This document shows positions 11,793-61,700 of a stretch of DNA of 64,000 bases, in pieces (positions within the stretch are counted from its first letter, which is position 1; each line of letters opens with the position of its first letter). The DNA is from Ginglymostoma cirratum (lineage: Eukaryota). The notes beneath the pieces were generated by a model. That model made no database searches. It was not told the DNA's origin and worked only from the letters and a program-made list of their open reading frames with translations. Position numbers and translations under genes: made by a program. The stretch lies in NCBI GenBank assembly GCA_024137785.1, contig JAHRHZ010000081.1, forward strand, positions 14,838,929 through 14,902,928, written 5' to 3'.

Positions 11793-13887
11793 GTTTTTTA
11801 TTCATTTGTGGGATGTGGGTGTCGCTGGCTGGCCAGCATTTCTTTCCCGTCCCTAGTTGCCCTTGAGAAGGTGTTGATGAGCTGCCTTCTTGAACCGCTG
11901 CAGTCCATGTGCTGTGGGTTGACCTACAATGCTACTGGGGAGGAAATTCCAGGATTTTGACCCAGCAACAGTGAAGGAACAGTGATATATTTCCAAGTCA
12001 GGATGTTTAGTGACTTGGAGGGGAACTTGGAGGTGGTTGTGTTCCCAGATGTCTGCTGCCCTTGTTCTTCTAGAGGGAAGTGGTCGTGGGTTTGGAAGGA
12101 GCTGTCTGAGGATCTTTGGTGAATTTCTGCAGTGCATCTTGTCGATAGTACACACTGCTGCTACTGTGCATTGGTGGTGCAGGGAATGGATGCTTGTGGA
12201 TGTAATGCCAATCAAGTGGGCTGCTTTGTCCTGGATGGTGTCAAGCTTCTTGATTGTTGTTGGGGCTGCACTCATCCAGGCAAGTGGGGAGTATTCCATC
12301 ACACTCCTGAAGAGTCACAGATGGTGCTGAACATTGTGCAATCATCGGCAAACATCCCCACTTCTGACTTTATGATGGAGGGAAGGTCATTGATGAAGCA
12401 GCTGAAGATGGTTGGGCCGAGGACCCTACCATGAGGAACTCCTGGAGCTGAGATGATTGACCTCCAACAATTATGACCATCTTCCTATGTGTCAGGTATG
12501 ACTCCAACCACTGGAGAGTTTGCCCCCTGATACCCGTTGATTCCAGTTTTGCCAGGGATCCTTGATACCACACTCAGTCAAATGCAGCCTCAATATCAAG
12601 GGCTGTCACTCTCACTTCACCTCTGGAATTCAGCTCTTTTGTCCATTGAACCAAGGCTCTAATGAGGTCAGGAGCTGTGTGGCCCTGACAGACCCCAAAC
12701 TGGACGTCACTGAGCAGGTTATTGCTGAGCAGGTGCTGCTTGATAGCACAGTTGATGACACCTTCCATCACTTTACTGATGATCGAGAGGAGACTGATGG
12801 GGCGGTAATTGGCCAGGATGGATCAGTCCTGCTTTTTGTGTACAGGACATACTTGGGCAATTTTCCACATTGTCGGGTCAATACCAGTGTTGTAACTGTT
12901 CTGGAACAGCTTGGCTGGGGGAGCGGCAAGTTCTGGAGCACAAGTCTTCAGTACTATTGCCAAAATGTTGTCAGGGCCCGTAGCCTTTGCAGTATCTAGT
13001 GTCTCCAACCATTTCTTGATATCATGTGGAGTGAATTGAACTGGCTGAAGACTGGTATCTATGATGCTGGGGCCACTGGAGGAGGCTGAGATGGATCATC
13101 CACTCGGCACTTCTGGCCGAATATTGGTGTGAAAGCTTCAGCCTTATCTTTTGCACTGATGTGCTGGGCTCTTCTATCGTTGAGGATGGTGATATTTGTG
13201 GAGCCTCCTCCTCCAGTGAGTTGTTTAATTGTCCACCATCATTCACAACTGGATGTGGCTGGACTGCAGAGCTTAGGTCTGATCCATTGGTTGTGGCATC
13301 GCTTAGCTCTATCTGTCACTTGTTGCTTTTGCTGTTTAGTGTGCAAGTAGTCCCGTTTGATGGCTTCATCAGGTTGACAGCTCATTTTCAGGTATGCGTG
13401 GTGCTGCCTCTGGCATGCCTTCCTGCACTCTCCATTGAACCAGGGTTGATCCCGAAGCTTGATGGTAATGGTTGAGTGGGGGATATGCCGGGACATGAGG
13501 GTACAGATTGTGCTGAAGTACAATTCTGCTGCTATTGATGGCCCACAGCACCTTATGGATGCCCAGTCTTGAGTTGCTAGATCTGTGCAAAGTCTGTCCC
13601 ATTTAGCACGGTGATAGTGCCACACAACACAATGGAAGTTATTCTCAATGTGAAGGCGGGATTTCATCTCCACAAGGTCTGTGCAATGGTCACTCTTACT
13701 GATACTGTCATAGATGGCTGCAACTGCAGCTGGAAGATTGGTAAGGATGATGATTGGTAAGTATATTTTTTCCTCTTGTTGGTTCCCTCACCATCTGCCG
13801 CAGACCCAGTCTAGCAGTTATGTTCTTTAGATCCCGACCAGTTCAATCAGTAGTTCTTCTGCTGAGCCAAACTTGGTGGTGGACATT
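11793..13887 (-). mobile_element. CR1/Jockey-group non-LTR retrotransposon, degenerate ORF2, 5'-truncated
   Basis: Minus ORFs include VWHYHRAKWD..DQPWFN, KATGPDNI..LKTCAPELA, QFG..ALDIEAAFD and EYSPLAWMSA. 3' tail 'aagggcaactagggacggg...ccacatcccacaaatgaataaaaa'. Confidence 0.9.
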
Positions 13888-13985
13888 TGTACCTAAGATG
13901 GTGCAGTAAGTGGCGACTTGTAAACTTTTCATTGTACTCATGTGAGTTCATGTGACAGAAAAGCTAATACTAATTCTAGTTTTAA
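13888..13985 (+). mobile_element. 3' tail of the VNTR element interrupted by the LINE
   Basis: 'gtacctaagatggtgc...aaacttttcattgtactc...gttcatgtgacag' is homologous to 4283-4380. Confidence 0.65.
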
Positions 13986-14244: not shown

Positions 14245-14494
14245 ATAGAGCGTTTTCCCAGTTGGATAAGGGTGTAAAGATCACAAAGTGTTAATTACTG
14301 AGGAATGCCTTAAGCACCACTGTTAAACTCTAGGGAGCTGGTGGGAGATCCTTGGTTAGGATCTCAAAGGAGTAAGCCTTAACATCTGGGTCTTCCACAT
14401 AGTCGTTGAAATGTACCAGAGAGCTCATACAGCATGATCAATTGTGAGGATTTTACAACATTTCCAGCTCCTTTGCCAGTATTATTTGGTAGGA

Positions 14495-14972
14495 CACAAT
14501 GACTTAGTGCCAATGTCACAAGACCAATAACTCGTGCCCTAATCTAATGCTTTGTGGGTATGGGTTTAAATCCTACCATGGCAGTTTCTGGGATTTAAAT
14601 TCAATTCATCACAGAATTCTTACAATGCAGAAGGAGGCCATTTGGCCCATTGTGCCTGCAGTGGCCCCTCAAATGAGCATCATTATCCACCTCCTTGTCA
14701 CAATCATTCCCAAGCTAATCTCAATAATAGCAGCCATGAAACTTACATTGATTATTTGAAAGAGTCACATTTTCTTCAGAGCTGGACATCTGCCTTCCTT
14801 ACCAGATCTAACCTAGACATGGGTCCAGAGGCTTCAGATCTGAGATTACGTGGTTGACTCTTAAATGCCTTTTAAAATAGCCTAGCAAACTACTAAGTTC
14901 AAGATTAAGTAGGCATGGGCAACAAATGCTGGTCTTGTCAGCAACTTCCACAGCCTGTGAAATAATAAAGAA
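14495..14972 (+). mobile_element. tRNA-headed SINE sharing the tail of the CR1/Jockey-group LINE, with a nested CR1 tail (~14608-14700)
   Basis: B-box-like 'gggtttaaatcc', body 'ctgccttccttacc...ggttgactcttaaatgcc', tail 'gggcaacaaatgctgg'. Confidence 0.7.
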
Positions 14973-15774
14973 AAGTTTTCCATTCTTCAGAAAGTGAATA
15001 TGAGCTACTTCTGCACTAGCTCACTGCTTTACAGTTCTAGTTGGAAATCTGATGAGAGCCAAATGTTGCCTTTTGTGGGGCAAAGGCCCACACATTAAGT
15101 ACCAGTCAGACACTTCACCAGACCAGACACAGATTTTTATTTCTCTTGGGATGAAGGAACTGGGGGCAGAAATCTTGCCCTTACAAGAGCTGACAGCCAA
15201 TCAAAGGTCAGCTGATATACATTGCTCAGCAGCACCACTGGGAATGATGGTTGGTGCTGGTAGTGTACTCACCAGGATTGCTGAGTGACCTAGGCCACAG
15301 GTGAGTAATGGTGGCATGAGGGTCAGGGAGTGGGAGTCACAGGGGAAGGTGGTCAGCAGCAACGGGAGAGCAGGGGCAGTGACTCTCAGCATATTACTTG
15401 CTCCTTTGCATTGCTGTGTCCCTGGATCTGGAAAATGAGGGACTTTGAATCAGGGAAGTCCCACAAGCATTCCTGACTAGGTTTGATTACTGGGTTTCCC
15501 TCATAGCAAAACCTTTGGTCACCACTGGATGAAGACCAGCAGTAGCAGAACAAGACCCTTAAGTGTCTTAATTGGCTGAGGATTTTCCAATTCGCATTTA
15601 GTCAGAAACAGATTGGAAGACTGGTGGAGCCAGGCTTAGAAGTCCTCCCTATAGCTGCAGAGCCCCCAGTATAGATATGATAACCTAAGAATGAATAGAT
15701 GAAGTGTGCCTTTCAGGCTCTTGAGCATATTTCACCATGCATTATGATCATGGCTAATCTGAATTATAGGATCC

Positions 15775-15989: not shown

Positions 15990-16250
15990 TGTTTTTATTC
16001 ATTCAGGGAATCGCTGGCTGGGCAAACATTTATTGCCCGTCCCTATTGTCCTTGAGAAGGTAGTGGTTAGTTGACTTTTTGCAGTCCATGTGCTGTAGGT
16101 ACACCCACATACCATGAGGGAGAGAGTTTCAGGACTTTGACCCATGGATACAGAAGGAACAGTGATATTTTCCCAAGTCAGGAAGCTGAGTGGATTGGAC
16201 AGGATATTTCAGTCGGTGATGTTCCCATGTATCTAATGGCCTTGACTTCT
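15990..16250 (-). mobile_element. 3' end of the CR1/Jockey-group LINE
   Basis: Aligns by eye with 11795-12070. Confidence 0.75.
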
Positions 16251-18344
16251 TGATGCCTGACAAAACATCTGACTTTGTTGTAGTGTGTTTCCCCAACTCA
16301 CTGAACCAATTTGAAGAGAGAGTACCCCCCCCCTCCATTTGCAAGTGGCATCCCTCTCATTAACCTACCAGTGCATTATTCAGTTTATATTGGACCATCC
16401 AGTTTTAGTGACCCGTTCCTTGTCTAGTACCGGGCACTGTTATGTCTGGTATTTTTAATTTGAAACCCAGAACCTTGAATGCTTTCAGTATTTGGCAGAA
16501 ACAAACACTATTCACTTTCCCTGTGACTGCCAAACAAGCTTGATTTATGTGGATACATAAACCTGTGTTCTTCACTGATTGGTGTACCTCATTGTCCCTA
16601 TCTTCTTCTGTTTTTCAGTCTTGTGGTTCCCCCACCTCTTACTGATTGTGACCATGGACCAGGAATAACTTGTAACACATTGGGATCCTGCAATGCTCAA
16701 AGCAGGTCTTGTGGAGCAGAGAATGGCATCCTGCATCTGATCCAGAAGTTCTAGCTTCGATTCCCACTCCAGACGTTTTGACCATGGAATGTCTGTTCAT
16801 AATGTAGCTAAACAGGCTAAGCATCTACTTCTATATCTTTCTAACACATGTCATTAGCAGACTGTAAAAGTGGTCAAGTATTCTGGTCAGCTGTGTGTTA
16901 GAAAGAAATTAGAACCTCTCCCATTACAGTTAAATGTGTGTGTTGCCTGAGCAACTGGGACTCCTTTGGATGGGGGTGGTGAAGGGTGTTGGCATTGGTT
17001 GAGATGGCTGGATGGCCAGTGTTGATTAGATTGGTGCCAACCATCGGTGTTTTCAATCAGTGAGCTGCCTAGGGTGGAGTTGAGATCTGCCTCTTTGCCT
17101 GCCCATGGCAGAGGTTGTGCTGCATTGAGTCAGAACTGCCTTTGAAGAAGAACATGCTAAACATTTGGTTGTCATTCAGGTACTTCTCCTAGTTTTAAAC
17201 TTAATCTTCCCTCCTGCTCATCATGCCGTATGACCTAGATGGTAGATTTGTTGCCACCATTCTCTTTCCTGGTAAGGATCTACAGGGCCTAATCTGATGT
17301 GGTAGAGAATAACCCCTTGCTTATCTGATCGGATTGCGGTAAACAATATATAGTTTATCACATGATTGCAAAAGATATAAGTTGCATATGTGCATTAGAC
17401 ATTGTTACAGAGGCTATGAGGGAGACACAGATAGTAGGTCTTTCTCCTTTGAGATCCAACGCTGTTCTCCCACCAAGTCCACATAACATCATTGTAGTGG
17501 GTGATGATTAAGATGCACCTTGATATTAACCTTTTCAGACCTTTACACTCTCATACAACACTTTGTTGTGTTTATATAAACTGGTCAAAAATATACCAGG
17601 TCATGCAGAGACACATTATATTATTTCATGTAGAGTTTGTTTTTCAAAACTTATTTTACTTTAACATTTGTTCATTCTGTCATAACTTGCAGTTGTATTG
17701 GATTGACTCAATGCTCAGAATTTTTTATGATAAAGTTTATTGAAGGATAACTTGTCTGTCTGTTCAGCAATGTTTTCATGTGGAACATGTATCATGAGTG
17801 TGAGAGTTGGCAGGGGAGTGTCTCATATTACTGAGCACAGGCAACAGTCACCCTGATTTGCTCTACCTGCTTTGAGATTCTGCTTGCCATCTTTGACTAA
17901 ATCGGGAACCTGAAGCTTAGTCCATTAATTGACTATCATGGGGGAAATCACAACGAATGACTGCTTCTTGCAAAGCCTAGGCATCTAACCCCTATTTCAG
18001 TTTGCTGGTGTGGTTGAGAAACCCTCAGCGAAGGTCCTACCCTTTCCCTCTGATTCTGTCTCTGCAGATGCTGTCTGACCTGTAGAGTGTATCCAACAGT
18101 TCTTGTGTTTTAGATTTTTGATAGCCAGTGTTTTGCTTTTGTATTACCTGGTTCTGAGTGTGTACGTGAGTATGAGTTTTATTTCCAAAAGTTGATAACA
18201 TTTATTGATGTCAAATACATGATGTTCAAAGCTAACATTACATAAGGTACAAAACCGAAACTCAGTTTTTCTCCACTGTTGCGTTATTTTTACAAGTACG
18301 ATTACAATTTCCAGGACTCATTGTAAACTAAAACCCGGGGGAGT

Positions 18345-19785: not shown

Positions 19786-20447
19786 CACCAATTCATTTTG
19801 ATTGTACACTTCACTTTAAAATATTTCCGTATTGCAAAGTGCATTGAAGGCATATCAAATTATTTAGTTTTTAAAAAAGCTATTCTTACATGACAGGGAT
19901 TTAGGAATGCTGGTAGTTATGAATCTGATCCCATACTTGGGTGTAATTTTTAAAGATACAACATATGACCATTTCCTGTGTTATATTTAACTGCATTGTG
20001 CTGTGACTACGTACAAGTCACCTTGTAGCCAGCTCAAGACCTGAACCACTTCGCAACCCAGGAACTGTGTGTATATATAATTAGAGGCCCTTTTTAAAAA
20101 AAAAAGTTGCCTCTGTTTAGTGCACTTCATGACCTCAGGATGTCCTCAAGTCCTCTAGTGTCAAAACAGTGATTTTTCGTTTGCGGTGTAGTTACTATTG
20201 TAACACAGACTATAAAGAGATTGTAAATTTAGGCCAGATATTGGTTTTGGCACTCAATGAACGTCCAATATCCATTCAACAGTTTAAAGCCAGAGGTACT
20301 ACAGCTTGCACAGGATAAGTGAGGGCAAAAGATGAAAGATTTCAAAGGGCAAAATGTTCGTCTTAATTTGTTAGGAGTACATTGGTATGTGTGAGTTTAT
20401 TAGGGAGTAGTAGTGCATTTGGAAAGGTTTGGGGAAAGAGTGTGCCT

Positions 20448-20780
20448 TCGTGGTAATGTGACTGGACTAGTAACCCAGAAGCCCAGACTAATGCTTTGGA
20501 GACATGAGTTCAAATCCTATTGCCCCAGGTGAAGACCTACTTTTCAGATTCAATAGTTAATCTGTGGAATTCTTTACCACAGAGGGCTGTTGAGGCTGGA
20601 TAATGAAGAGTATTCAAAGCTGAGATGAACAGATTTTTAATTATTAAGGGGATCAAAGTTGTTGGGAAAAGGCAAGAAAGTGGGTTGAGGATGATCAGAT
20701 CCACCATGACTTCATTGAATGGCGGAGCAGTCTTGATAAGTTGAATGGCCTACTTCTGTACCTGTATCTTATGGTGTATG
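20448..20780 (+). mobile_element. SINE head (20448-20540) followed by a CR1 3' end (20545-20780)
   Basis: 'gtggtaatgtgactggactagtaacccag...gagttcaaatcc', then 'aatctgtggaattctttacc...gaatggcctacttctg'. Confidence 0.75.
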
Positions 20781-23374: not shown

Positions 23375-25774
23375 AAGGAGTTATAAGTGATTGTTTATGG
23401 ATGATTTGTACAAGGTGCCGCATGCGTGGCCCCGAATGCTTTATTAAAAGGATCTATTCTGTTTCATGTACTCTTCTGAATTATGCTGATACGTGATTGG
23501 TGAGTGAACTTTTTAATGGGCATCCAAGATGGGGTAAAATTCTGTAACCTCCTCATAATTTGCTCTTTTGGTCCTTGTCTTTGTGTCATGGTATTTGAGA
23601 CAGTAGCTGCTGCAGCTCAGCCATAAGGACAGTGACACTTTCAGTTTGCTGATATTGGTAATGAGACTTCAAATCTGGGGGCTGATTAACAGAAAAATCA
23701 GTCGAAATTGTGAATTGTAGTGAGCGTGTGGATTGTAAAAGCAATGTGTTTATCAGTATGAAGAGATGGTTTCCCCTCATTTTCCAGTAGCTCACATTTT
23801 TTTGGAGTTCAGAAGTCAACTCAAATTAACATGCTTGCCCAACAATGGCCCTTTTAATCTGATGTATGGCAATTGCAACACAAAAGCTTGCATTCAGCGA
23901 GTTATTAGCTTAATTCTTGATGGGAACAAAATGTCTGCATTTTACTCTCCAGTCAGTTATACTCAATAAAATGTGCTTTAGTAAGGGCAGGGTGTAAGGA
24001 GAAGAGGAAAATCAATATTTCACCTGTGTTGGTTTGTCTTGATAATGAAATATGGGAAGTTTGTCTAGGATTGTTTTATTGTCCCTAAGAGCTTAATACT
24101 ACAAGGTTTGCCTCCTTCAATTCAATTTTGACAGTATGCAAATGTGAACTTGAAAGTTTTAAACACTCCTGTAAAGACAATTTTGCAGTATGGGCTGAAG
24201 TGATCCTTGGTGATATTGTACAATGGAAGTTTCAGGTCCAGTTATTTTTGTTTTCAAATATTGCCTCACCCTGCAACATTTAGTGCTGTTTTGAAGAGCA
24301 TTGTTTTTGTGGACTGTTGATTCGGTTTACAAAAGCTTTTGCAGATTTTGCGATATTCTAGGCAGCCTGTACCTGCAAAATAGTTGAGTATTCATCTCTC
24401 TACTTTTGGTTTATGTTCATTTTTATATCGACTTTGGTGTTGTAACAGAGATTAATTTAAGAGGATCAATCATCCATTCCTCTCTAACTGTTTTAGAATT
24501 TGAATCATTATATTGAAAATAAAAGTCCTACTTTCAATATGAAGTAAAAAGGACTGATAAAATAAGCGAATTGTTGCACCGATCCACTTGGTTGGCTACC
24601 ATCTTTACCTCATTTGCCCTTTATGCAACTTAAGTCCCATACCAATGCAGTTGACTGTTAACTGGCTTCTGCCACCAAAACAGGGATGTTCAGAAAGTTC
24701 CAGCCTTGCCTCACAACAAATACGAAGTCATATTTCTCAAATGTTTTAACATCATTTGCAAATTATGCATTAGTCACTATAAGTTTCATCAACTCATAAC
24801 AATTGTCATTTGTGCAAAAATATTTGTAGTTATTTCTGAAAGTAATGCATTGTTGACAACAAATCAGCTGTATTTAACTTTTAATTTGCATTATATGAAC
24901 CATTTCAAATGCACTTTCACATGCCACATCTGATGTTTCCTGCCAGTGTATAAATATCTTGCCAAGGTTTACAATACATACATTGTTCTCTACCTTTTTG
25001 CCTGAATTTGCATTTTCCAAAGTAGAAGGAGTTAACCCTTGTATAGCACTTGGTCATATTTGCACAGATCATGTGGCTTGGGTGTTATTCAGTGAAGTTT
25101 GAATATTACATTGTTATCATTTTCTAAAAGGTGTAACTAACAATAAGCAACTCTTATGTTTCATTTGAATTTTCCTCTTGCATTATATTCCTTCTACTGT
25201 TCAGATGCACTAAAACATGTCTTTCTAACTCCAGTGGAGGGTGCATTACTCCATGATTTAAGTACTTTTACGATTTGATGAGGAATATGGATCTAATAAC
25301 TTGGGTGGCGATGTGAAAAGCCCTCCTCATCAGTTTCTTCTTTATGCTTGAAGTTTTAACCCACAAATACTGCCCCTGATGATAGAAAGGTATAAACATG
25401 GGAGCAGGACAGGTCGTTTGGCCGATTTGGATCTGCTCTTCCATTCAAAATGATCATTACTGATCTTCTGTTAAAACGCTGTACTCCAACTCTCCCCATG
25501 ATCATTGACACCTTGCTTCTAGAAATCTGTCAGTTCTCCACCAAATTCTGGAATATGCCTTTGAAGTTCATCGCAAGAAGCTTTGTCACATAGAACTCTG
25601 CTCTATGGATGCACTGAGCTAAACACCAGCTGTGGCAAGTGGATCATCAATTCAGTTGAAAGGCACTTGTTTTCATGTTCTGAAACTTGCTTCCACTACA
25701 TAGTTGACCTCGGCTGAGTGTTACAAGGTTTAGGAATGCCCTACAACTTGGGCCAGCTGCATACCAGCGCAGAG

Positions 25775-32486: not shown

Positions 32487-33202
32487 GAGTGCAGTGAAGG
32501 AAATTTATCTTTATTATTCTGCTGCAAGGTTTGCGTTGGGCATAATCAAAACTTGCTCTTTTGACGTGTGTCATATTTGCATACTGAATCTAAACATTAT
32601 TGTTCCTAAAATGTCATGGTCAAGCTTATAATTAAGTTACTAATACAGTTCCTACCTTACATCAGTGGTCACATTTGAAAAAGGTACACTGGCATTCCAG
32701 TAAGTCCTGCAGTTTGTGGAAAGTGCTTCATAAATAGTTATTTCTAAAAGAACTTGGCTGAACACTTGAGACATCTTAACATTCAAGACGATGGTCCAAG
32801 TGCTGCTAAGTGGCACTAGTGTAGTTTGTGTTGGTGCAGACTTCATCGGCCAAAGGGCTTCTTGGTACTGCATTGAGAAATACAGTCCCTTAAAAGGACC
32901 CAAATGTTTGCTATGGTTGAGTCAGATTTAGTGACGACATGTTGCCACCAGGGTATAAGTTCCAATTTGGGTACAGAAAATGCCACTTGCAGCTCTTAAG
33001 GTACCACTGGTTATTATCTTCCTGCTCAGTCTAAATGTTTTGAGCCAATTGAATGTTGCTTCATTGCAGAATAATTTGTTGCTTGCTTACTGCCATGCTT
33101 CATCCATTTTAACCATTTATAATGATGATTCTGTTGAAGTTGACTGGCTTCAATTGTATGTACTGTCTTTCTTTTCAAAAAAAAAAGGCTGTTTGTAGCT
33201 GG

Positions 33203-33422: not shown

Positions 33423-33619
33423 CTGTTTGTAGCTGGGCTGCATATGCCGTTTTGTTTATTCCAGGAGCTCATTATTTAAATGCCATGCTATAATCCAAGA
33501 TTTTGCTGCAAACCAGAGTTGTTGAGAGCTGTAATTATGATAGACAGGAAGTTCATGTCACTATTTGCAAATGTGAAACCATATTGAACTGTCTTGCTTT
33601 TGGCACACCTTCAAATGGG

Positions 33620-36600: not shown

Positions 36601-37230
36601 TTCCCAATCCCCTGGCCTCCCACTGCCCTTCGTATTATGTGCTTTTTCTTTTGCTTTTATTCTATCCCTGATTTTCCTTGTCAGCCATGGTTGCCTTGTC
36701 CTTCCTTTCGTATGCTTCTCTTTCCTAGGGATGAATTTTTGCTATGTCTCCTGAATTACTCCCAGAAACTCCTGTCATTGCTGTTCCACTGTCTAGGCTC
36801 CTCTCCCAGTGAATTCTGATGAGCTCCTCCCTCTGTAGTTGCCTTTATTCAACTGTAATACTGTTACATCTGATTCCATTTCTCCCTCTCAAATTGTAGA
36901 GTAAGTTCTATTATACTATGGTCACTGCCCCCAAAGGGTTTCTTCATCTCGAGCTCCTTTACAAGTCTGCCTCTTTGTACGTTACTGAATCCAGAATTGC
37001 CTGTTCCCTAGTGGGCTCCACAAAGTGCTCCAAAAAAACCATCTTGTAGACATTCCACAAATTCCTTTTCTCGCAATCAACTGCGACTGCCTGATTTTCA
37101 GCATATATACCATCCTCTTCTAGAAAATCAGTTCTGAAAAAAGGGTCACCGGACTTCACATTTTATCTCTGTTTCTTTCTTCTCAGATGCTGCCAGATCT
37201 GATGAGTTTCTCTAGCTGTTTGTGTACTTG
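33620..37230 (+). mobile_element. Old Neptune-like PLE split by a CR1 insertion
   Basis: Inverted pLTR at ~33620-33727. Degenerate thumb/linker/GIY-YIG at 33835-34530 paralleling 2160-2880. pLTR with decayed hammerhead resumes at ~37095-37230. Confidence 0.7.
34695..37095 (-). mobile_element. CR1 LINE ORF2, degenerate, with internal deletions and an inverted duplication
   Basis: KSPGPNGLH..ENYRPISLTSVIGK..QHGF..SCLTNLL..YLDFQKAFDKVP (35852-36388) and KFTDDTK (35519-35728). Confidence 0.92.
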
Positions 37231-41047: not shown

Positions 41048-42074
41048 AAGGCTATAAGGATGTTCGGGGGTAATTTTGTACTACTTAAATCATTAAACAG
41101 AAGACTTAACAGTCCAATGTAAAATCACTGACTATAAGTTTCTTTATTTAACTGAACATGGCTGGACTCTCAGCTCCTCTCAAAATCAGGAAGTAATGAT
41201 GGCAAATAATACTAGTTTCACCATCGTTAGCAGGGCAAACTGTGAGCTATGGAATTGACTCAAATAGTGCTGTATTTTTAGAAGACGAAATATATTGGCT
41301 TGGCAGTATCATACCCTTAGAATCCTCGTCACAAAATTCATTTGCTGATATAAGCCCTTGTCGGACTAAGAGTAAAGCTTTTCTCCTTTTTTTAAAAAGA
41401 AAACTCCCTTCACCTAATTTGCTCAAAAAAAAACCAGAAGTGTGCAAAGAAAAATATGAAATATTAAAGTTTGACAGTTGAAAACTGGACCAACTTGTAA
41501 ACTGGAGTCACATGATGCTAGTTCATGTCCCTAGAGAATGTTAAGAGAAAGAGCCAAGAAAATCATCTGTAATGCTGCCATTTTCAATCTAACTTCAGCT
41601 TATTTGAGAACGTTTAGCTCAAAATTTCCCCAGATCAACATGAAAACAATTCAACTGTAAAGTCACTTAACACTGAGGAAATCAGTATCAAAATGTACAG
41701 CAATGAAGTGCGTTTATTAGAGGAGTGATTTGAAGATTTAGTAAATGCTAAAATTTAAACATGAGGAAGCATTTCATTTCTGTGCATTTAGTTAGAAAAA
41801 TGTGGCATTGATATTTAAGGATGTTGGTAGATATTAATAAAATTGCATTTAGAGTTTACCAAAGTACTGCTACATTTGAAGGATTTATCAGTTCAATTCT
41901 CTGATTACTTTGCACCTGTGCTAAAACACTATGTAAGTCAGATTCAAAACAGAAGTTTATATTCTTAGGTAAACTTGCAAGAAAATGTCATGCAATGCAC
42001 AATAATCTAATGCTGCACAATAGGGAAAGCTTTGGCAAAATAATTACCTCGTTTCGTGCCTTTTGTGGGGCGTG

Positions 42075-42428
42075 GGGTATATACCATTGATCCAACGATC
42101 CAGCAATCCAGAAACCCAGGCCAATGTTCTGAGGATACGGATTTGAATCCTACCATGGCGGATGAAATTTGCATTAAATAAAATTCTGAAATAAAGAGCT
42201 TGCTTAATGTCAGGCACGTCACCATAGTCAATGGCTTTTTAACCAAAAAAGTTCTGTTCACTAACATCCTTTTAAGGAAGGAAATCTGCCACCCTTGCCT
42301 GGTCTGCCCTAAATGTGATCCCAGGCACACAGCAACGTGTTTGACTGTAATCTGAGACCTGGCATTTGGGGATGAGCAACAAATGCTGGCTGAGCCATCA
42401 ATGCCCATGTCTTAAGAATGAATGAAAA
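42075..42428 (+). mobile_element. tRNA-headed SINE with CR1/Jockey-group LINE tail
   Basis: 'ggatttgaatcctaccatggc...ggaaggaaatctgcc...gatgagcaacaaatgctggc...atgaatgaaaa'. Confidence 0.8.
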
Positions 42429-43261
42429 GCTCGATTAGTTTACTTTCTGCATTAGGAAATGCCAATAAAATGCAAGGAATGTAACTGAATATTCTTATTA
42501 CAAGATTTTTGTACACCTTTACCAGCTGCCAAGGCTACGATCTCACAAATGCCAACAGCGTTTTGGAACCTTTCCCAAGTGGTTAATGTCTCTTCATGAG
42601 CACAAATGTATATCAACTTGGGTGAGGAAAGGTGTAGTGCAATCAGGTCAACACCAAATTTACATTCTCTTTGCACATATTTTCAGGGTTTCATATTTAA
42701 ACAAGCAGGGACAGACGAGGAATTTAGCACTTCCCAGATTGAAAATATGGCAATGGACTTCTTATGCCTGCCACTGCCCTGGCCCAGACCTGTGAAACAG
42801 TTAAAAATTGGAAAATGTTGTCTCAGATTCAAGTACATAAATACGCTAGGAGCCAAATATTATCCTGATCCCTGCACAGAATTCCAAACAACCGAATCAC
42901 TTCCTGTTAGCTCCCATGATGTACATACTTGATGAAACACTCTAGGGATAATCATATTGCATTCATATTTTCTACACAGATTCGGCTTCAGTGAATCATG
43001 TTAACTGGCTATCAATCCAAAAGCCCAATTGCACTGAGATAGCCACAGCATCTACTACTGATTAACACTTTAATTCAAACCTCTTTGCAAATATTTTCGT
43101 ATCGTTTAAAATTTCCAACTTCCTTTCCCAATTCTGATTCATACTTATCACCAGTGTAATGTTTTAACTAACTAACTTAGAATGCAGTAAAATGTAGGTA
43201 TTTTACTGCTTAGCAAGTTGGGAAATAATTTGCAATCAGCATTTATCCTTTTGCTTTAATA

Positions 43262-47824: not shown

Positions 47825-48608
47825 GGATAGTAAGAATTGGCGATGCTGGGGTCAGAGATAAGTGTGGAGCTGGAGAAACACAGCAGGCCAGGTAGCGTCA
47901 GAGGAGCAGGAAAGTTGACGTTTTGGGTCGGGACCCTTCTTCAGAAATGGGGGAGGGGGAAGGGAGCTCGGAAATAGATAGAGAGGGGAGGGGTGGTGCA
48001 GGGGAAGGTAGGTGGAATGGAGATAGATGAGTGCAGATAGGGAGTGGTGGGGATTGGTCAGCGAGGTGGGAGGACCGGATAGATGAGAGAGAAGATGGAC
48101 AAGTTGTGTCAGGTCAAGGAGGCGGGGATGAGAGGGAGGGTTGGACATGGGATGAGGCCAAGGGGTGGGGTATCAATGGTATCAGTGTGGACTTCACAAG
48201 CTTTAAGATCTCCCTTCCTCCAACCGCATCCCAAAACCAGCCCAGCTTGTCCCCGCCTCCCTAACCTGTTCTTCCTCCCACCTCCAGCCTCACGCCCATC
48301 TCTTACCTACTAGCCTCATCCCGCCCCCTTGACCTGTCCGTCCTCCCTGGACTGACCTATCCCCTCCCTAACTCCCCACCTACACTCACCTTTACTGGCT
48401 CCATCCCCACCTGTTTGACCTGTCTGTCTCCTCTCCACCTATCCTCTCCTCTATCCATTTCCTATCCGTCTCCCCCCCGCTCCCTGTTTATTTCAGAACC
48501 CCCTTCCCCTCCCCCATTTCTGAAGAACGGTCTAGGCCCGAAACGTCAGCTTTCCTGCTCCTCTGCTGTTTGGCCTGCTGTGTTCGAGTTCTACATCTTG
48601 TTATCTCT
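47825..48608. mobile_element. Divergently joined PLE 3' ends from two subfamilies
   Basis: Minus arm 47825-48170 (hammerhead stem gggtcccgaccc). Plus arm 48171-48608 (NGISVDFTSFKIS; hammerhead ctgaaga-acggtctaggccc-gaaa-cgtc at 48520-48547). Confidence 0.85.
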
Positions 48609-49902
48609 GCATCTCAAGGTCCTGTAGTTGTTGTAACCTTTGTCTAGAAGAATGTGTTAAAGTAGTATTTAGTAAATATGTACAATGGTGATTTAAGAAT
48701 GACAATGAAGTTAGATTCTACTGATGTAATCTGAGACTGCCTCTCCTGTTGCCTTTGCAATCGTATGATCACACACTGTTTTAAAGGCTACAGTTTCTAG
48801 TTAGAATATTGTTTATTTTACTTACATGTATATACCTTCCCTACTGTTTACAAGTTGTTCTACCTATTTCATGCAGTTGTTTTTATCTGAAGATATACTA
48901 ATCCTGTAAAACTTCTAGATAATGTTTGAATACTTTGCATCTCCAACAAATTTTTTGACTTAAATGTCAAAACTGATATTCTTTTTTAAATTCCGTATCC
49001 ATACGGAGATGTTGATTTCAAGTTGGTTGAAAATACAGCTAGCAAGATTTGTAGATTGGTGTCTTGATCCAGACAAGCCATTGGCCTTGATTCAGATAGG
49101 GACTGATAACAATCAGAATTTGAGCATTTACTTTGGCTCCTTCAACAGGCACATTTAGTACAGGAGCTTGCCACTCCAGAGTAGCCCTTCTGCTTTTACC
49201 AGTTTGACTGCAGATTTTGGATTCATCCCTTAATTCAATTTTCAGAATACCCCAGAATTAAGCTTGAACATTTAAACATTTTGAAGTCATTTTGATCTTT
49301 GGTTTTACTACATTTGGAATTCTGATTTTTGCTCCATTGTAAAATGAAATTCAGGACACTGGAGTGAACAAAGAACAAAGAAAATTACAGCAGCGGAACA
49401 GGCCCTTCGGCCCTCCAAGCATGCGCCGATCCAAGAGGGTAAACAAGATCTGCTAAAGTGATAATTTAGTTGAGAGACTCTGAGGAAAGTCTGAACAGAT
49501 CGGGATAATTTCTTCTGAAGACTGAGTAGTTAGTGACCTAATACATGTCTGTAAGGCTCAAAAGGGGAGACAACTGCCTGGTGATGCTATTGCTAAACTA
49601 TTCATGCAGAACAAGAATGAAGTTAGAATCCACTAAGGCAATCTGATTCTGCCTGTTCTGCGGACCCAAGTTTGAATCTTGCAACAACAGATGGAATTTG
49701 AATTCAATGAATATCTGCAATTAAGAATCTACTGTGATCATGAAACCATTGTTGATTATCGTAAAAACCTATTTGGCTCAATAATATTGTTTAGGGAAGA
49801 AAATCATCCTCACCTGGTCTGGCCTACACGCCACTCCAGATCCGTAACAATGTGTTGACTCTTAACTGCCATCTGAAACGGTCTAGCCATCCACTCATTT
49901 GT

Positions 49903-50127
49903 CCTAGAGATAATAGGAACTGCAGAAGCTGGAGAATCCGAGATAACAAGGTGTGGAGCTGGATGAACACAGCAGGCCGAGCAGGAAAGCTTTACGTTTC
50001 GGGCCTAGACCCTTCATCAGAAATGATGAAGTTTTCTGATGAAGGGTCTAGGCCCGAAACATCAAGCTTTCCTGCTCCTATGATGCTGCTTGGCCTGCTG
50101 TGTTCATCCAACTCCACACCTTGTTAT
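49903..50127. mobile_element. Miniature inverted-twin PLE pLTR with CUGAUGA/GAAA cores on both strands
   Basis: Minus core at 49993-50020 and plus core at 50036-50063. Flanking repeat cactca(t/c)ttgt at 49892-49902 and 50128-50138. Confidence 0.88.
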
Positions 50128-50305
50128 CACTCACTTGTATTAACTGTTGCGAAGTCTCAAGAAAGAAATGAAACCAGACGGACCACCTGGCATCAACCTA
50201 GGCACCAGAAAAGACAATAGCAGAAACAGCCCTGTTGACCGTGCAAACTCCTGACTAACGTCTGGGGGCTAGTGTCAAAATTGGGTCTCACAGACCAGTC
50301 AAGCA

Positions 50306-50410
50306 GTTCCTTAGTTCTGAGGAAGGGTCACTGGACCCGAAATGTTAACTCTGTTTTCTCCTCCACAGATGCTGCCAGACCTGAGCTTTTCCAGCAACTT
50401 TGTTTTTGTT
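50306..50410 (+). mobile_element. Solo pLTR insertion starting with a hammerhead
   Basis: agtt-CTGAGGA-agggtc-actg-gaccc-GAAA-tgtt-aact. Flanking repeat ccagt(c/t)aagca at 50295-50305 and 50411-50421. Confidence 0.8.
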
Positions 50411-52559
50411 CCAGTTAAGCAACAGCCTGACATTTGCTGTAAGGTATGATTGCATGAGTATGACTGTCTTGGGCACCACCATCGCCATCCCCAGCTATGT
50501 CATGTCCCAGCAACAGGATAGACCCAGTAAAGGTGAAGGTACAATGTAATGCAGTCAGAAAGGGGTTTCCCTGGAGTTATCCACATTGACTGGACCCCAT
50601 GTAGTCTCATGGTTTCAGGTTACATGTGGACAAGGAAACCTGCTGATTACCACGTACTTTCCACCCGCAGCTGATGAATCAGTACTCCTCAATGGTAAAC
50701 AACACTTGGGAGCAGAGGGTGCGAGAGCAGGAAACGTAGTCTGGGTGGAAGATTTCAATGCCCACCAGCAAGAGTGGCTTGGCAGTAACACTACTGATTG
50801 AGCTTGTCAGCCCTAAAGGATGTAGTTGTTAGACTGGGTCTGCGGCAGGTGATGAGTGAGCCAACAAGAGCGAAAAACGTGTTTAACCTCATCATTACCA
50901 GCCTGCTGGCTGCAAACTCATTTGTCCATGACAGTATTGGTGAGAGTGACCACTGCACAATTCTTGTGGAGGTGACGTCCTGCCTTGACATTGAGAACAC
51001 CCTCCATGTTTGATGGCACTATCACTGCACTAAATGGGACAGAGTGCAAAACAGATCTAGCAACTCGACTGGGTACGCATGAGGTGCTGTGGGCAATCAG
51101 CAGAATTGTACAAGAATTGCAACTTCATGGCCTGGCATATCCCCCTCTCAACCACTACCATCAAGCCACAGGATCAACTCTAGTTCGCTGGAGAGTGCAG
51201 GAGGGCATTCCAGGAGCAGCACCAGGCATTTCTAAAAATGAGGCGTCAGTCAGGTGAAGTTATCAGACAGGATTACTTGTATGTAAAACGGCATAAGCAA
51301 GTGATAGACAGAGCTAAGTGATCCCACAAACAACGGATCAGACCTAAGCTGTGCAGTCCTGTCTCGTTGAGTCAGGAGTGGTGGACGACGTTAAGCAATT
51401 CACTGGAAGAGGCTCCACAAATATCCCTATCCTCAATGATGGAAGAGCCCTTTTGCATCAGTGCAAAAGATAAGGCTGAAACTTTTGCCACAATCTTCAG
51501 CCAAAAGTGCCGAGTGGATGATCCACCTCTGCCTTCTGAAGTGGTTCCCGTCATTTCAGATACCAGTCTTCACCCAATTCGATTCACTCTATGCAATATC
51601 AAGAAATGTTTGGATTATGGGATACTCTGAAGAGCCCTGACAACTGAAGACTTACGCACCAGAACTTGCCACTCCCTTAGCAAAGCTGTTCCAGTGCAGT
51701 TACAACACTGGCATCTACCCGACAGTGTGGAAAATTGCCCAGCTGCATCCTGTACACTGTAAGCAAAACAAATTTAACCTGGCCAATTACTGCTAGTCTA
51801 CTCTTGCTCAATCATGAAAAAATGGAAGATGTCATCAACAGTGCTATCACTTGCTCAGTGCCTAATTTGGGTTCTGCCAGGGCCACTCAGTTGCTGACTT
51901 CATTGCAGCCTTGGTTAAATAGTGGACAAAAAGAGCTGACTTCTGGAGGTGAGTTGAGAATGGTGGCCCTTGACATCAAGGCCACATTCAATGGGGAGTG
52001 GCATCAAGGAACTCTAGCACAACTGGAATCAATAAGCATCAGGGTCCAAAACTCTGTGCTTGGGGTCATACCTGGCACACTTGAGGATGGTTGCAGCTGT
52101 TGGAGGTCAGTCATCTTAATTCCAGGACATCTGTGCAGGGGTCCCTCAGGGTAGGCCCAGCCATCTTTAGCTGCTTCATTAAGACCTTTCCTCCATCATA
52201 AGATCATAAGTAAGGATGTTCACTGACTATTGCATAACCATAATTTATGACCCTTCAGATACTGCAGCAGTCAGTGTTCAAATGCAACAATATCTGAACA
52301 ATATTCACGCTTGGGCTGGCAAGTGCCAAGTAACAATCACAAGTCATAAATGCCAGGCAATGACCATCTCCAATAAGAGACCCTCTAATCACTGCCCCAT
52401 GATATTCAATGGTGTTACCATCACTGAATCCCCTACTATCAACATTCTTGGGGTTAGTATTGACCAGAAACACATCTGAGTTTACCACACAAAAACAGTG
52501 GTTACAAGAGCAGGTCAGAGGCTAGGAATGTAAAAGAATGAGTTGGGAGATCTGATTTT

Positions 52560-52870
52560 AAAAAAAAAATCATTTGAGGGCATTGCTAGCTAGGGGCAGC
52601 GTTTATTGTGCATCCCTTGTCCAGAAGGCAGTTCAGGGTCAACCACATTGCTGAGAGTCTCGAGTCACATGTAGGCCAGACCAGGTAATGATGGCAGTTT
52701 CCTTCCCTAAGGACATTAGTGAAACAGCTAATTTTTCTGACAATTTATAATGGATCCATGGTCATCATTAGATTCTTAATTCTAGGTATTTTTATTGAAT
52801 TCAAATTCCATTATCTGCAGTGGTGGGATTTGAACCTGGGTCCCCAGAACATCATCTTGGTCTCTAGATT
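52560..52870 (-). mobile_element. tRNA-headed SINE nested in its partner LINE
   Basis: Reverse complement of the 58385-58740 family ('gttctggggacccaggttcaaatcccaccact'). Confidence 0.8.
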
Positions 52871-53257
52871 TAGGTATATAAAATGCTAAAAGGGGTTGAT
52901 AAGGTAAACATTGAACAGAAGATCCCCCCCCCCTAGTGGAACAGTCTTGAACAAGAGGTCATAGATATAGAGTGAGAGGAGTTGAGTTTAAATCTGAGAT
53001 GAGGAGAAACTACTTTTGTAAGAGGGTTGTGAATCTGTGGAACTGACTGCCCCAGAGTGCAGTGGAGGCAGAATCAATTAACAGATTCAAGAAAGAAATA
53101 GATACATTTCTGATGAAAAGCAGGATAAAGAGCTATGTGGTGTAGGCAGAAAAGTGGAATTGAGACCAATACAAGATTAGCCATGATCATGTTAAATGGC
53201 AGTGTAAGCTCGGAAGGATTGAATTGCCCACTCCCGCTCCTAATTCCAATGTTCCTA
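52871..53257 (+). mobile_element. CR1 3' end nested in the LINE
   Basis: 'gagatgaggagaaactacttt...gaatctgtggaact...ctcctaattccaatgttcct'. Confidence 0.85.
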
Positions 53258-54639
53258 ATACTGCGGTGAGTTACTCGCCTCCTGACACCCCAGAGCTTGT
53301 CTGCCATCTGTGCGGCAGAAGTCAGGAGTGTGATGGAGTACTACGCACTTGCCTGGATGGGTACAACTCAAACAACACCTCAAGAAGCGCAACACCATCC
53401 AGGACAAAGCAGCCCACTTGATTGGCACCATATCCACAAGCACCTACTCCCTCTATCACCAATGTTCAGGAGCAACACAGTGCACTGCATAAATTCACCA
53501 AGGCTCCTCAGACAGCACCTTCCAAACCCATGAACACTTCTATATAGAAGGATGAGGGTAACAGATACATGGAAAGGCCACCACCTGCAAATTGCCCTCC
53601 AAGCTACTCGCCACCCTGCCTTGGAAATATATTGTTGTTCCTTCACTGGTGGGTCAGAATCCTGGAATTTCCTCCAAGGGCATTGTGGATCAACCTACAG
53701 CATATAGACTGCGTTGGTTCAAGAAGGTAGCTCAATAGCACTTTCTCAAGTGGCAAACAGGAACAAGCAATAAATGCTGGCCAGCCAGTGATACCCATGT
53801 CACACGAGTGAATACAAAGTTCAAATTTTTGTCCTGTAGAACATTGACAGGATCTGTGTGCATTCAAATTTAAGCAAGCGAACGAGATGTGAAGATGTAA
53901 TATAAAGCCATGAGGGAAGATGCACATTTAGTATGCAGTATTTAGTTCCTTAGGCCCTAAGCTCAGAATTCCCTTCTCTTTCTCCCAATGATGTGCTCCT
54001 TAAAATTGATCTGTTTTTCCAAGCTTGTCTTATTCTTTCCTTATTTATCTGTCAAAGTTTGATAAAGCTTCTATGAAGCATTTGAATCTTTTACTACACT
54101 AACTGTTCGAATCAAGATTAATGAATATAAGCAACGAAAGAAAAATTGCAAGTTACTCTTTTGTCATGTTTGATGTCTTACTGAGCTCCGTTTACGACAG
54201 ACTGGTCAAAGAGAAGACAAAGTCAACAGCTGTATTCAGACTTCAATTTCAAAGTATCACTGTTTGTTATACAATTGCATTTGGTAGTTACATATATGGC
54301 ATTTGCAGTTATACCAGGCTCTGATTTGTTAAATTAGCTAATGGTAAATCCACGTTCCCTAACTGTGTATGGCCATGTGGTGTCAAGATTCTTTCATTCC
54401 AGAATATTTTAACTCTGCTCGCATTGTGCTATTTATACTACTTGACATGTAGCTGCAGTGTGCCTGACCAGTTATATAATACCCCTCCCCAAGCTTTTAT
54501 CCCTTTTCCTCAGCAATTATTAATTAGATACATTCTCAATGAAGTTAAAGTTGACAATTTTTGTAACAAATCCTTGTCAGCCCATGCTTCTTTATTGTCC
54601 TGTGTTGATTATAGACCAAAATGTGAAAGGAAATTTTAA

Positions 54640-58384: not shown

Positions 58385-58742
58385 TGGGCAATCAACAGCC
58401 TAGTGCTATTATCACTTGACTATTAATCCCGAAACTCAGCCAGTGTTCTGGGGACCCGGGTTCAAATTACACCATGACCGATGATTTGAGTTGGAATTCA
58501 AGGAAGAATCTAGAATTAAGGGTCTAATTATGAACATGAAACCATTGTCGATTGTCGGGAAAAATCCGTCTGACTCACTAATGTCCTTTAGGGAAGAAAA
58601 TCTGTCATCCTTAACCTGGCCTGCCCTACCTGTGACTCCAGACGCACAGTAATATGGGTGACCATTGTCAATTAAGGATGGGCAAAAAAATTCTGGCTTA
58701 ACCAGAAACCCACATCGTGTGAGGAAATAATAAAAGAAAATG
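58385..58742 (+). mobile_element. tRNA-headed SINE with CR1/Jockey-group LINE tail
   Basis: 'gttctggggacccgggttcaaat...catgaaaccattgtcgattgtc...gggaagaaaatctg...caattaaggatgggcaa'. Confidence 0.85.
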
Positions 58743-61700
58743 AATCAGCCATGTTTCAATGGGTTTGCAGTCACATGTAGTTCAGACTAGATATCCTTCC
58801 CCAAATGATGGTGAACCATTTAGGCTTTTGATCATCTAGGATAGTTTTCAGGTTAGCACCACAGAGATTGGCTTTTCATTCCAAATTTTAGAATTCAGTT
58901 GTTCATATCAGCTGCCACAGTGGGATTTAAATTCACTTCTGCAGAGCCTCTGGATTATTTGTTGAGTGACATCACCACTATGCCATCATCTCCCCTAAAT
59001 TGAGCTTATTTAAGGTTTGTTAGCAAGGCTCATCTTGGTGAAGTGGGTGAGATAAGTGTTAAAATACCTTGGTTTCAAATGCATATAAGAACATAAAACT
59101 AGGAGCAGGAATACACAGTTCAACCCCTCAAGCTTCCTATGTCATTCATTCAATGTAACAGATTTCATCTCGGCCTCAACTCCATGTTCCTCCCTGTTCT
59201 TCATAACCCTTTAACTAGTTACTAATTATAAATCTTCTCCTAAAAAGATTCATCGATTTAATGCTGAGCATCAATTCGATTGAACACCTTTGGAAAGTAT
59301 TTCTCACACCATTTTACTGAAAACTAATTTCTGAAAGTGAATCAAAAAAGGTGAAATTCTGATAGAACCTAGATTATTTTCATTATCTTTATTCGTAAAA
59401 CTTGTAAAAGTGCATAACAGTTCAAATTTGACATTTTGGTACAATGTTACATTTGGTGTCTCAACATAATGCAAATTGGAAATAAAATGTAATTGCAGTT
59501 GTATTTCACGTCGAAGATTTTCTGGTGCTTCCAGACCAGGGACTTTACATGGGTTCAGACTCTTGTGGTGCACAATGGCAAAAGGCCTTGAGGTGTGGAC
59601 TTTGCCTCATGAGTCTTTCTGGCACCATACCTGAGCTTTAGTGCACTCTCGCCACCAGCATCCTTGCTAAAACAAACGCACCTAGAGAATCCTCCAGTCT
59701 ATTACAACACTCAGTGGTGGGCAACACTCTGCACTGCGTGACCAGGTTTCTCACAGCCTGTAGAGTACCTAGTTGCTAGTTCTCCATTCGCAGTTAAGTT
59801 TGTCTTGCTGATCATCCCTGGGAACAGCCCACTGAGTACAGAGTCCTGTTTTACAGAGAAGGTAGGAACCTAGATTGCTGTAAAAAAAAAACCTTGTCAG
59901 GAGAGTTTAGTGGTTGTGAGTCAGTCATAATGAAGTGTGCCATGACTTACTGGGTGGTGTGTTGGAAATCGAGCCCCATTATTTCAGTTGGTACAAATGT
60001 GAAAATCTTCACTCTAGCTAGTCGAAGCTCCCTTTTACCTCACGGATAAATTGAATAAAGAAACATTCTATATGCACTGCACAATGAGTTCTGTTAACTT
60101 TTTTTAAAGAAATGCATCTTCTGCAGTCTGGTATTTTTTTTAAAACCTGTATCCTTTCCTATTTTTAAATCCACAGTCCAAAAAGTAAAGATAGCCTTTG
60201 AAGTATCATTATATGCCAATGGTGAAAGAGGCAGGTCTTCAGCTTGTAGATGAGAATGCTAAACACAGCATCCTGAAACTCTTAACATATTGTGGAGCAA
60301 GATTGATTCCCCACAGCTGACATTGTTGTTAAATGCATTAGTGGTGCCTATGTGCCATTAATGACATTTTAAAATAAATCTAGCAATCTTGTTAACATCT
60401 TCTTTTATTCACCCAGAACCTTCAAGATAGTGCAGCTTCAGTGGGGCTAAGACTGATCCAGCATCCTACCACTTCTTTCCACTGCTCTACAATTCTTCAT
60501 GTTGAACAGATGCATCTGCTGGATTAGTTGCAAATATTGACGGGTAGGGATGCTTTAATTTTCAGTGTGCAAGTATTTGTCTGTAATTTGCAAGTGAAAA
60601 TCATTCTCTCGATTGCTGTGCCCTGGACCAAAAAGGATTTGTTTCCTGCTCAAGTCAATTTCCATACTGTACAGTGCAAAAGAAATCAAATCTGAATGAA
60701 CTGTGCTTTGATCATCTTGAACGAGTTACTGTGCAAGACTGGGACCAATCATCTAATAAGAAAATATTTCTTTCCAATTTGCTTCCTTCCAAAATCCAAG
60801 ATACTACTTTTGTTGAGTGATGTCTGAATAGAGAAGTGGCTTCATGAAACTGTAGGTTTGCTGTGACAGATACAGTTGTGAATAATGACTTGTGTGAATT
60901 AAATTGTAGTGAATATCTTAAGTTTCTTAATTGGATAAAGGCAGGTTGAATGCAGCTTATCAAATGTTATGATGTTTTATTATGAGTTTTGAAGTATTGA
61001 GCCTTAATGTCGATTGATAGAGTAGTTAGTTACTCAAGTCCCTTTTGGATATTTAACCTTGACATTGTACTCCATACACTAATCATATTTTTGGGTTGGA
61101 ATTTTATTGTTTGTGTTCACCATAGGGCCAGAATATAGTCAAAACAGGGTGTTACAGCACAGGAAGCCATTCAGCCTTTTGTTGCCATATCAGCTTGCTG
61201 CAAAAGCAGCTCAGAGTTTCACAGATTTTGCAATAGTTTAGAGCCTGATAAATGATAGCAATACAGACTACTCAGTTTTATTTGCCAGGTTGTTCAGGCT
61301 TAGTTGTCTTCAAAATGAGAAGTGAATCTTGAAAGATTAGAAAAACAATCTTCTACTTTCTTCTGCCCCATTTCTTGGACTTTGTGTACCCTGGATCCAG
61401 TAAACACATTAAACTGTATCAAAATTCTTGATTCAACAAAATTCACTTCTTTGTCCCTTTTAACTATTGTTCCAAAGGACATTGTGCTCAGTAATTTCAT
61501 TTCAGTTTAGAAGCTGACGGAATTTCTCTTTAATATTGAAGTAATGGAAGTATACCACTTGTAACAAAGTTATAATGGCGATGGTGTGTTGCAGATCATT
61601 TCAAATGCAAATTACTCTGTTTTATGAACATGCATGGCGAGAGAGACTGCAGTTTCTATCCATGACATTACTTGCCAGGTATATTTCCTGCTCATGCTGC

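Follow-up and report, generated by a model that had tools for sequence, protein, structure and literature searches.

By the usual division, long interspersed elements (LINEs) are transcribed by RNA polymerase II (Pol II) and short interspersed elements (SINEs) are templates for RNA polymerase III (Pol III), which stops at runs of four or more T. The origin of SINE bodies is an open question. In the bipartite SINEs of the RTE and Vingi clades, including Bov-tA, Mar-1, AfroSINE, CoeSINE4, and SINE2-1_AMi, a tRNA-type head is followed by a piece of a LINE 5' untranslated region (5' UTR) and a LINE 3' tail (PMC5786205; for this and all other sources cited, statements cover the accessible portion of the text). 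The donors of SINE bodies in that survey are RTE and Vingi only, and the head was added after the deletion and is absent from the LINE (PMC5786205). A precedent for a LINE with tRNA-like sequence is RTE-1_DAn with its relatives, which matches many SINE2 elements; it belongs to the RTE clade, and in the accessible text neither where the tRNA-like part lies nor what it does is stated, and the match is treated as accidental (PMC5786205). Here we describe a LINE and a SINE in a 64,000-nucleotide stretch of the shark Ginglymostoma cirratum (GenBank assembly GCA_024137785.1, contig JAHRHZ010000081.1, positions 14,838,929 to 14,902,928, forward strand; hereafter the window, whose own coordinates are used below). 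The SINE has the same bipartite plan, and it probably descends from the LINE through removal of the middle part; unlike in the RTE and Vingi cases, the donor is likely of the CR1 group and the LINE copy itself is headed.

The LINE is best compared with the CR1-Zenon elements of elasmobranchs, which share with it a shark host, one open reading frame (ORF) with apurinic/apyrimidinic-type endonuclease (APE) and reverse transcriptase (RT), the lack of ORF1, and an A-tail, and which very probably belong to the same lineage. Full-length Zenon elements have been recovered from five elasmobranchs, the shark ones not being formally annotated, and since all surveyed Zenon, shark ones included, are ORF1-less and poly-A-tailed (bioRxiv 10.64898/2026.01.13.699120), the lack of ORF1 is less surprising than an initial annotation of the window had held. 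In the accessible text of that paper the words tRNA and promoter are absent, SINE occurs once in an unrelated context, and no head or partner SINE was found (10.64898/2026.01.13.699120); CR1-Zenon is named once for the whale shark in another source (bioRxiv 10.1101/443036). Lepidopteran Zenon elements are 3.06-3.74 kb long and give internal-deletion derivatives, and in Zenon/Persaeus, like here, an ORF1-less LINE of ~3.3 kb has its 5' and 3' ends, brought together by internal deletion with variable breakpoints, as an abundant non-autonomous element (PMC6740152). Persaeus is without tRNA homology or a Pol III promoter (PMC6740152), whereas here the short element and the LINE copy carry A and B boxes. 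A Persaeus-type SIDE, which has neither tRNA head nor Pol III promoter, was rejected as a class for the short element on account of these boxes.

Zenon also mobilizes SINEs through a common 3' tail, namely ZenoSINE in heliconiine butterflies (PMC6685494) and, in bivalves, SINEs that end in CR1-Zenon tails (PMC11481361); the tail alone is shared, and neither head nor body is reported in the LINE in the accessible texts, unlike here. Cartilaginous fish have tRNA-headed SINEs of their own, among them SacSINE1, with a Deu domain and an L2-2 tail (PMC5499810), and HE1, with a V domain. The SacSINE1 tail is assigned to L2 (PMC5499810), and the tail of the present SINE matches the A-tailed LINE studied here. 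SacSINE1 was set aside as the identity of the SINE because its tail is described as L2-derived, the comparison being by description only. Short body and tail motifs do not occur in a hagfish SINE supplement; in the Kojima 2018 supplement their matches are short and either unrelated or partial. The full-text articles searched describe neither this SINE-LINE pair nor any Zenon-like LINE of sharks that has both a tRNA-type head and a bipartite SINE; Repbase, Repbase Reports, Dfam, and most subscription journals were outside that scope, so the SINE may already be named. Loss of ORF1 and deletion derivatives are already known, and what is new is the apparent Pol III-type head on an autonomous element and the probable CR1-group source of a SINE body.

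The window is eukaryotic, repeat-rich DNA, and the nearest named proteins of the LINE are from sharks (Heptranchias perlo, 69%; Heterodontus francisci). It contains three copies of the one LINE, together with at least seven whole or partial copies of the one SINE. The LINE copies are as follows.

49563..53815, plus strand: LINE copy A, 5'-complete, decayed, single ORF (APE and RT), 73-77% identical to copy B
11795..13890, minus strand: LINE copy B, 5'-truncated inside the APE, with an internal deletion and an A run at its end
15995..16255, minus strand: LINE copy C, 3' end only

Copy A is a dead, 5'-complete copy of an ORF1-less LINE, and its parts run in the order head, ~200-nt body, 113-nt leader, APE, RT, and A-rich tail.

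49553..49562, plus strand: candidate whole-element target duplication, 8/10 identical to 53816-53825 and suggestive only
49563..49695, plus strand: head common to the SINEs, with a decayed A box at ~49574-49584 and a decayed B box at 49669-49679
49610..49651, plus strand: 42-nt stretch interrupting the head, resembling 48696-48748 (77% over 53 nt), copy-specific
49696..49902, plus strand: body common to the SINEs, the LINE 5' UTR part; translated body precedes the APE in proteins P0010 and P0051
49903..50138, no strand assigned: palindromic nested insertion whose sequence is related to both ends' sequences in the Penelope-type (GIY-YIG) element at 1417-3330
50139..50251, plus strand: LINE-specific leader of 113 nt, matched by proteins P0042 (E 2e-10) and P0051
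50252..51022, plus strand: APE endonuclease region of ORF2, with stops, frameshifts, and one nested insertion (PF14529, E 0.024)
50306..50421, no strand assigned: second nested insertion, with an 11-bp target duplication (50295-50305 / 50411-50421), similar to 37130-37202 and 33618-33700
51067..52530, plus strand: linker, RT, and thumb region of ORF2, broken (homologous copy B: RVT_1, E 4.7e-14)
52531..53257, no strand assigned: nested block in ORF2, a fragment of another repeat plus the SINE at 52565-52875 (minus strand)
53258..53815, plus strand: C-terminal part of ORF2 and 3' tail, the final ~80 nt being the SINE tail

Without its three nested insertions copy A measures 3,132 nt, with small deletions. 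The initial annotation had started the head at 49625, and the SINE heads move that start to ~49563: the 48 nt at 49563-49610 beat 500/500 shuffles against two of five heads and are nonsignificant against the other three. The match of this head to the SINEs stood, and the 42-nt stretch at 49610-49651 interrupts the head. A sequence similar to that stretch lies 900 bp upstream; it is possibly a locally templated insertion. The nested palindrome proved real, with an 11-bp target duplication (49892-49902 / 50128-50138, one mismatch), and once it is removed the body passes into the 113-nt leader and then into LTNVWGLVSKLG at 50252, where the APE starts. The initial annotation had given ~120 nt between palindrome and APE N-terminus, and had not noted that the second insertion (50306-50421) and a frameshift separate LVSKLG from KQQPDI. 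The leader encodes, in the ORF2 frame, a basic peptide with 8 K/R in its last 30 codons and two stops. Head and body amount to only 298 nt, and they and the leader all lie upstream of the APE in this one copy, so that, as had been claimed, there is no room for an ORF1. The single ORF is recognized by the APE, weak in copy A, by the RT, clear in copy B (Pfam E-values as listed), and by an L1 ORF2p match at E 3e-11. Copy B is without ~330 nt of the thumb region (gap at 12334/12310, minus strand) that copy A has around 52240-52530 and 53258-53320, and nothing above chance was found as its target duplication. No other leader-bearing copy was found in the window (best other match E 0.74).

The SINE copies recognized by sequence match are listed next.

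14490..14975, plus strand: SINE with the longest body and an internal insertion; LINE 5'-end homology stops and LINE-tail homology starts at 14899
42068..42430, plus strand: SINE with a shorter body before the tail
52565..52875, minus strand: SINE without 5' end, nested in LINE copy A
58385..58737, plus strand: SINE
58745..58998, minus strand: SINE without tail, with a perfect A box
20431..20545, plus strand: SINE head only
24590..24700, plus strand: SINE body fragment

The two SINEs at 58385-58737 (plus) and 58745-58998 (minus) stand tail to tail and nearly abut, the minus copy being tailless. As the initial annotation had it, the pre-ORF2 region of copy A matches SINE head and body well above chance (63-74%, E 1.5e-35 to 2e-5): 49654-49875 aligns with the SINEs at 52851-52622 (73.7%, E 1.5e-35), 58444-58642 (72.4%, E 2e-27), and 42125-42361 (62.9%, E 2e-14), and 49834-49900 aligns with 14832-14899 (70.6%, E 2e-5). 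In the body region, identity between copy A and four SINE copies is 68-79%, about as high as among those SINEs themselves (69-82%). The tail that the SINEs were said to share with the LINE 3' end was also borne out: for each of the four named SINEs, one or more of the three LINE tails gave a score (45-59) above that of 200/200 shuffles (maxima 30-40). In 5 of the 12 pairings the shuffles were not all beaten, and the fragment at 24590 matches none of the three LINE tails. A 13-nt purine-rich motif of the body (TAGGGAAGGAAA-like; 49783-49800 and SINE bodies) resembles part of a conserved RTE 5' UTR domain described in the accessible text of PMC5786205, and is too short for homology.

The local SINE, then, equals the first ~300 nt of the LINE plus its last ~80 nt. 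In the longest-bodied copy (14490-14975), position 14899 is where homology to the LINE 5' region stops and also where that to the tail of copy B begins. This is the two-part structure to be expected from an internal deletion, as had been proposed initially, and the joining of a partner LINE's 5' and 3' ends that characterizes bipartite SINEs and SIDEs; a 3' tail common to the partner LINE is also a feature of SINE2 elements. The remaining copies join body and tail somewhat earlier, which further deletion or separate origins would both explain. Because the SINE at 52565-52875 is nested inside copy A, it is younger than copy A, and the SINE was mobile after copy A landed.

Whether the junction recurs elsewhere was examined in predicted proteins rather than in the DNA of other copies. 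One search with the window APE alone as query gave 16 proteins, and another with an alignment that included the window leader and a stretch of P0010 gave 56 among 4,529 candidates; 66 of 68 proteins were compared with head, body, and leader, two low-complexity false matches being left out. Three (P0010, P0051, and P0042) match the LINE 5' targets at E up to 0.01. By reading, some 17 of the 66 proteins are copies of shark type, and most of these start inside the APE and are thus uninformative about the 5' end. The N-terminus of P0010, a protein returned by the APE-only search, bears no relation to the window; residues 119-168 are translated body that runs past the junction like copy A (PATYLYQ versus PSTHLY*, where the SINE has QTTKFK), and the APE comes next. 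This body part scores 90 against the SINE at 52565-52875 and 58 against copy A, neither being reached by any of 60 shuffles; against the SINE at 14490, 3/60 shuffles reach the score. In P0051 the N-terminal 14 residues are body, followed by leader and APE, and this protein ranks first among the 66 N-termini (46 versus 31); 0/200 shuffles reach its score against each of four SINEs, and 5/200 do so against copy A. The alignment of P0042 is continuous from 49886, inside the body, through the leader (E 2e-10) into the APE. All three are gene models at other loci, 39-54% identical to the copy A APE. Because P0010, P0051, and, weakly, P0042 show body or junction upstream of the same APE, the body is read as part of the 5' UTR of the LINE family, and the body-to-ORF2 junction is not unique to this locus; the refuting condition that the initial annotation had named, a unique junction, thus does not hold for it. 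The chance insertion of a LINE into a SINE, also named there, is unlikely because no leftover SINE tail lies behind copy A: no second tail was found downstream, with scores of 18-22 against background means of 19-22.5.

Distant relatives, with Leuciscus chuanchicus and Branchiostoma belcheri among the species of the named proteins, usually have a basic leader before the APE; the N-terminal extensions of nine of them do not match the head or body of the shark element (best E 0.11). The distant relatives P0006, P0023, P0024, P0043, and P0049 have a similar ~30-residue N-terminal stretch before the basic leader; it, too, fails to match the shark head and body, and may represent a conserved 5' UTR element of their LINE group in translation. 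When longer relatives of the linker ORF were sought, 199 candidates yielded one match and no full-length ORF2. In the ESM Atlas the clusters were generic endonuclease ones for P0006 and unnamed ones for the C-terminal region, with no clade information.

The head was judged by its box motifs, scored with an A/B-box consensus. In the consensus of seven heads an A box lies at +13 with one mismatch and a B box 63 nt later, internal and near the 5' end as in SINE2 elements; one copy (58985) has a perfect A box. The 63-nt spacing might point to a tRNA with a long arm as the source of the head. The fifth and sixth bases of the B box are CA in 3/7, TG in 2/7, and TA in 2/7 heads, which is the decay pattern of CG and points to a perfect ancestral B box. 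In copy A both boxes are decayed (four mismatches in the A box, three in the B box), and the boxes are clear only across copies. Heads that are 20-30% diverged were recognized neither as tRNA nor as cloverleaf by ARAGORN, Rfam, or alignment folding; on the window, ARAGORN called no head, its only call being an unrelated one inside the copy B RT (12827-12920). The initial term "tRNA-like" stands on A/B-box motifs only; "Pol III-type head" is a fair reading of these motifs. The head likely belongs to the LINE family, and it may serve as the LINE's internal promoter.

From its architecture and RT motifs, the LINE is likely of the CR1-Zenon lineage. A single APE-RT ORF, no ORF1 (seen in one copy), an A-tail, a length of ~3.2 kb, and a shark host all fit CR1-Zenon: in copies B and C a short run of A follows GAAT at the end, the end of copy A being decayed, and the 3,132 nt of copy A compare with ~3.1-3.7 kb for lepidopteran Zenon. 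Its RT motifs presumably resemble those of Zenon. Canonical CR1 (HER1-type, with an esterase ORF1) was rejected, given the lack of ORF1 and the 29% RT identity to the other LINE RT of the window (35855-36361), which we take to be CR1-type; one fragment of that second LINE is nested in copy A.

If Pol III read the whole LINE, T runs should matter, and the sense strand of copy A (3,132 nt) has two runs of four or more T (T4+), against 7.8 expected from base shuffles (P 0.007) and 5.9 from dinucleotide shuffles (P 0.04). It contains no T5, and its A, C, and G runs are not depleted; four control stretches of other retroelements have eight T4+ runs in 3,912 nt, five of them T5 or longer. No T4+ run is common to copies A and B: both runs of A are interrupted in B, and the single run of B falls at a site deleted in A and corresponds to Pro in P0001, so all three may be decay. 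As a sign of Pol III reading the deficit is suggestive, no more.

The explanation that we favor, with a slightly better than even chance of being right, is a headed, ORF1-less, Zenon-like shark LINE family from which an internal deletion made the local SINE. Copy A begins at the same position as the SINEs, and the two homologies abut exactly at 14899. The active element would have made one transcript of ~3.2-3.3 kb starting at the head, with ORF2 translated from behind a UTR of ~400 nt with its short basic leader, and the RT would have recognized the 3' tail for target-primed reverse transcription. A deletion from the end of the body to the last ~80 nt would have spared the promoter as well as the recognition signal, and its product would be a finished SINE, mobilized in trans by the LINE protein; further small deletions would yield the shorter variants. 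The least certain step is transcription of the full LINE by Pol III itself, which we put forward tentatively, as falling short of an even chance. In its most far-reaching form the proposal would make an autonomous shark LINE a SINE that encodes its own RT, transcribed by Pol III from a tRNA-type promoter through a 3.2-kb strand purged of T runs, with its ORF translated from uncapped RNA, a single deletion sufficing for a full SINE without head capture, and a CR1-group parent; that whole combination we consider rather unlikely.

Several observations weigh against this explanation. The head is on the LINE in 1/1 5'-complete copies, and because the protein evidence reaches the body and no protein reaches the head, its place on the LINE is known from copy A only. 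The three proteins are predicted gene models, two of which pass abruptly from one segment to another, presumably via splicing or deletion, and the nine body residues of P0042 are nonsignificant by themselves. A leader search in ATG frame (28-91 aa only) gave no candidate. For the head, pairs of A and B boxes at two mismatches each occur seven times in the window, only two of them at SINE heads; ARAGORN run on the head consensus at thresholds from 95 to 70 (-ps70) called nothing, 36/300 shuffles getting a call; Rfam gave no tRNA up to E 10 in three stretches; and RNAalifold folded five heads into a weak hairpin (-2.5 kcal/mol), not a cloverleaf. The T4+ deficit in copy B is nonsignificant (1 versus 3.5, P 0.115), as are synonymous-codon controls on that copy (P 0.13 and 0.52); the preference for TTC at Phe (13:2) is found also in two Penelope-type controls, and copies A and B are not independent of each other. 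The candidate duplication flanking the whole element is marginal, 6% of 3,000 random site pairs scoring as well (P ~0.06), and 0/4 SINE copies have target duplications above chance. Zenon membership is drawn from architecture and the likeness of motifs, not from a tree, the APE tree having 23 rows without named clade references.

All the independent evidence ends at the body, which might be a native Pol II 5' UTR; a headless deletion derivative, Persaeus-like, would then have gained a tRNA head to become the SINE, and copy A, alone or in a minority, would have regained a head by template switching or recombination through the body. Such a route to bipartite SINEs is published (PMC5786205, PMC6740152), the ~200-nt shared body would be an easy switch point, and a scan for oddities would favor so rare a copy. 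However, the sole 5'-complete copy in the window is headed, in register with the SINEs, and a late recombinant would have no need of a T4 deficit along the whole LINE; we regard this history as unlikely, if a serious competitor. A quite improbable one puts the SINE first: using the LINE's tail, it would have donated head and body to the LINE in place of an old 5' UTR, and the hybrid would have amplified (the "SINE that captured ORF2" of the initial annotation). The present-day architecture would be the same, but the join would have to fall exactly at the SINE body/tail boundary (14899), a coincidence that deletion does not require, and the SINE nested in copy A is the younger of the two. Copy A is nevertheless no closer to the SINEs than these are to each other, and the failure of distant relatives' N-terminal extensions to match suggests that the 5' end may be a shark-specific acquisition.

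We find it hard to credit a one-off local accident, be it insertion of a LINE into a SINE or the formation of a U6/L1-type chimera between SINE RNA and a truncated LINE, even though nested insertions are common locally (three in copy A) and chimeras of Pol III RNA and LINEs are known (PMC6789731). P0010 and P0051 largely refute it, showing the order body, leader, APE at other loci; there is no leftover SINE tail, and the junction coincides with the SINE body/tail boundary, upstream of an intact ORF2 start. Under the favored explanation of a headed LINE family, the pair would add a CR1-group donor of SINE bodies in sharks, where Zenon is recognized but unannotated. If the head is family-wide, there would be a one-step route from LINE to SINE, and a tRNA-type promoter would be unusual for a protein-coding retrotransposon. 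If Pol III does transcribe the LINE, the division between Pol II LINEs and Pol III SINEs would be broken, and translation of a long Pol III transcript would be directly testable. In repeat annotation such LINEs would come out as two elements, a "SINE" and a LINE truncated at its 5' end.

The window contains other repeats. Just past the tail of copy B lies a tandem array (11298-11622) with a unit of ~57 nt, internal matches at a 19-nt offset, and an N gap inside. The second abundant LINE is found at 35852-36397 (minus) and 32010-32630 (minus), with fragments at, for example, 20553-20774, 34699-34943, and 52880-53257. A Penelope-type element occupies 1417-3330, with copies at 48174-48630; it has a GIY-YIG ORF at 2333-2938 (Pfam E 2.4e-5) and inverted terminal repeats that are ~98% alike. 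Many short palindromic elements match its ends (18477, 23239, 26298, 33205, 38455, 47826, and 49903). A second Penelope-type element, read from translation, is represented by decayed RT and GIY-YIG-like ORFs at 26777-27971 (minus).

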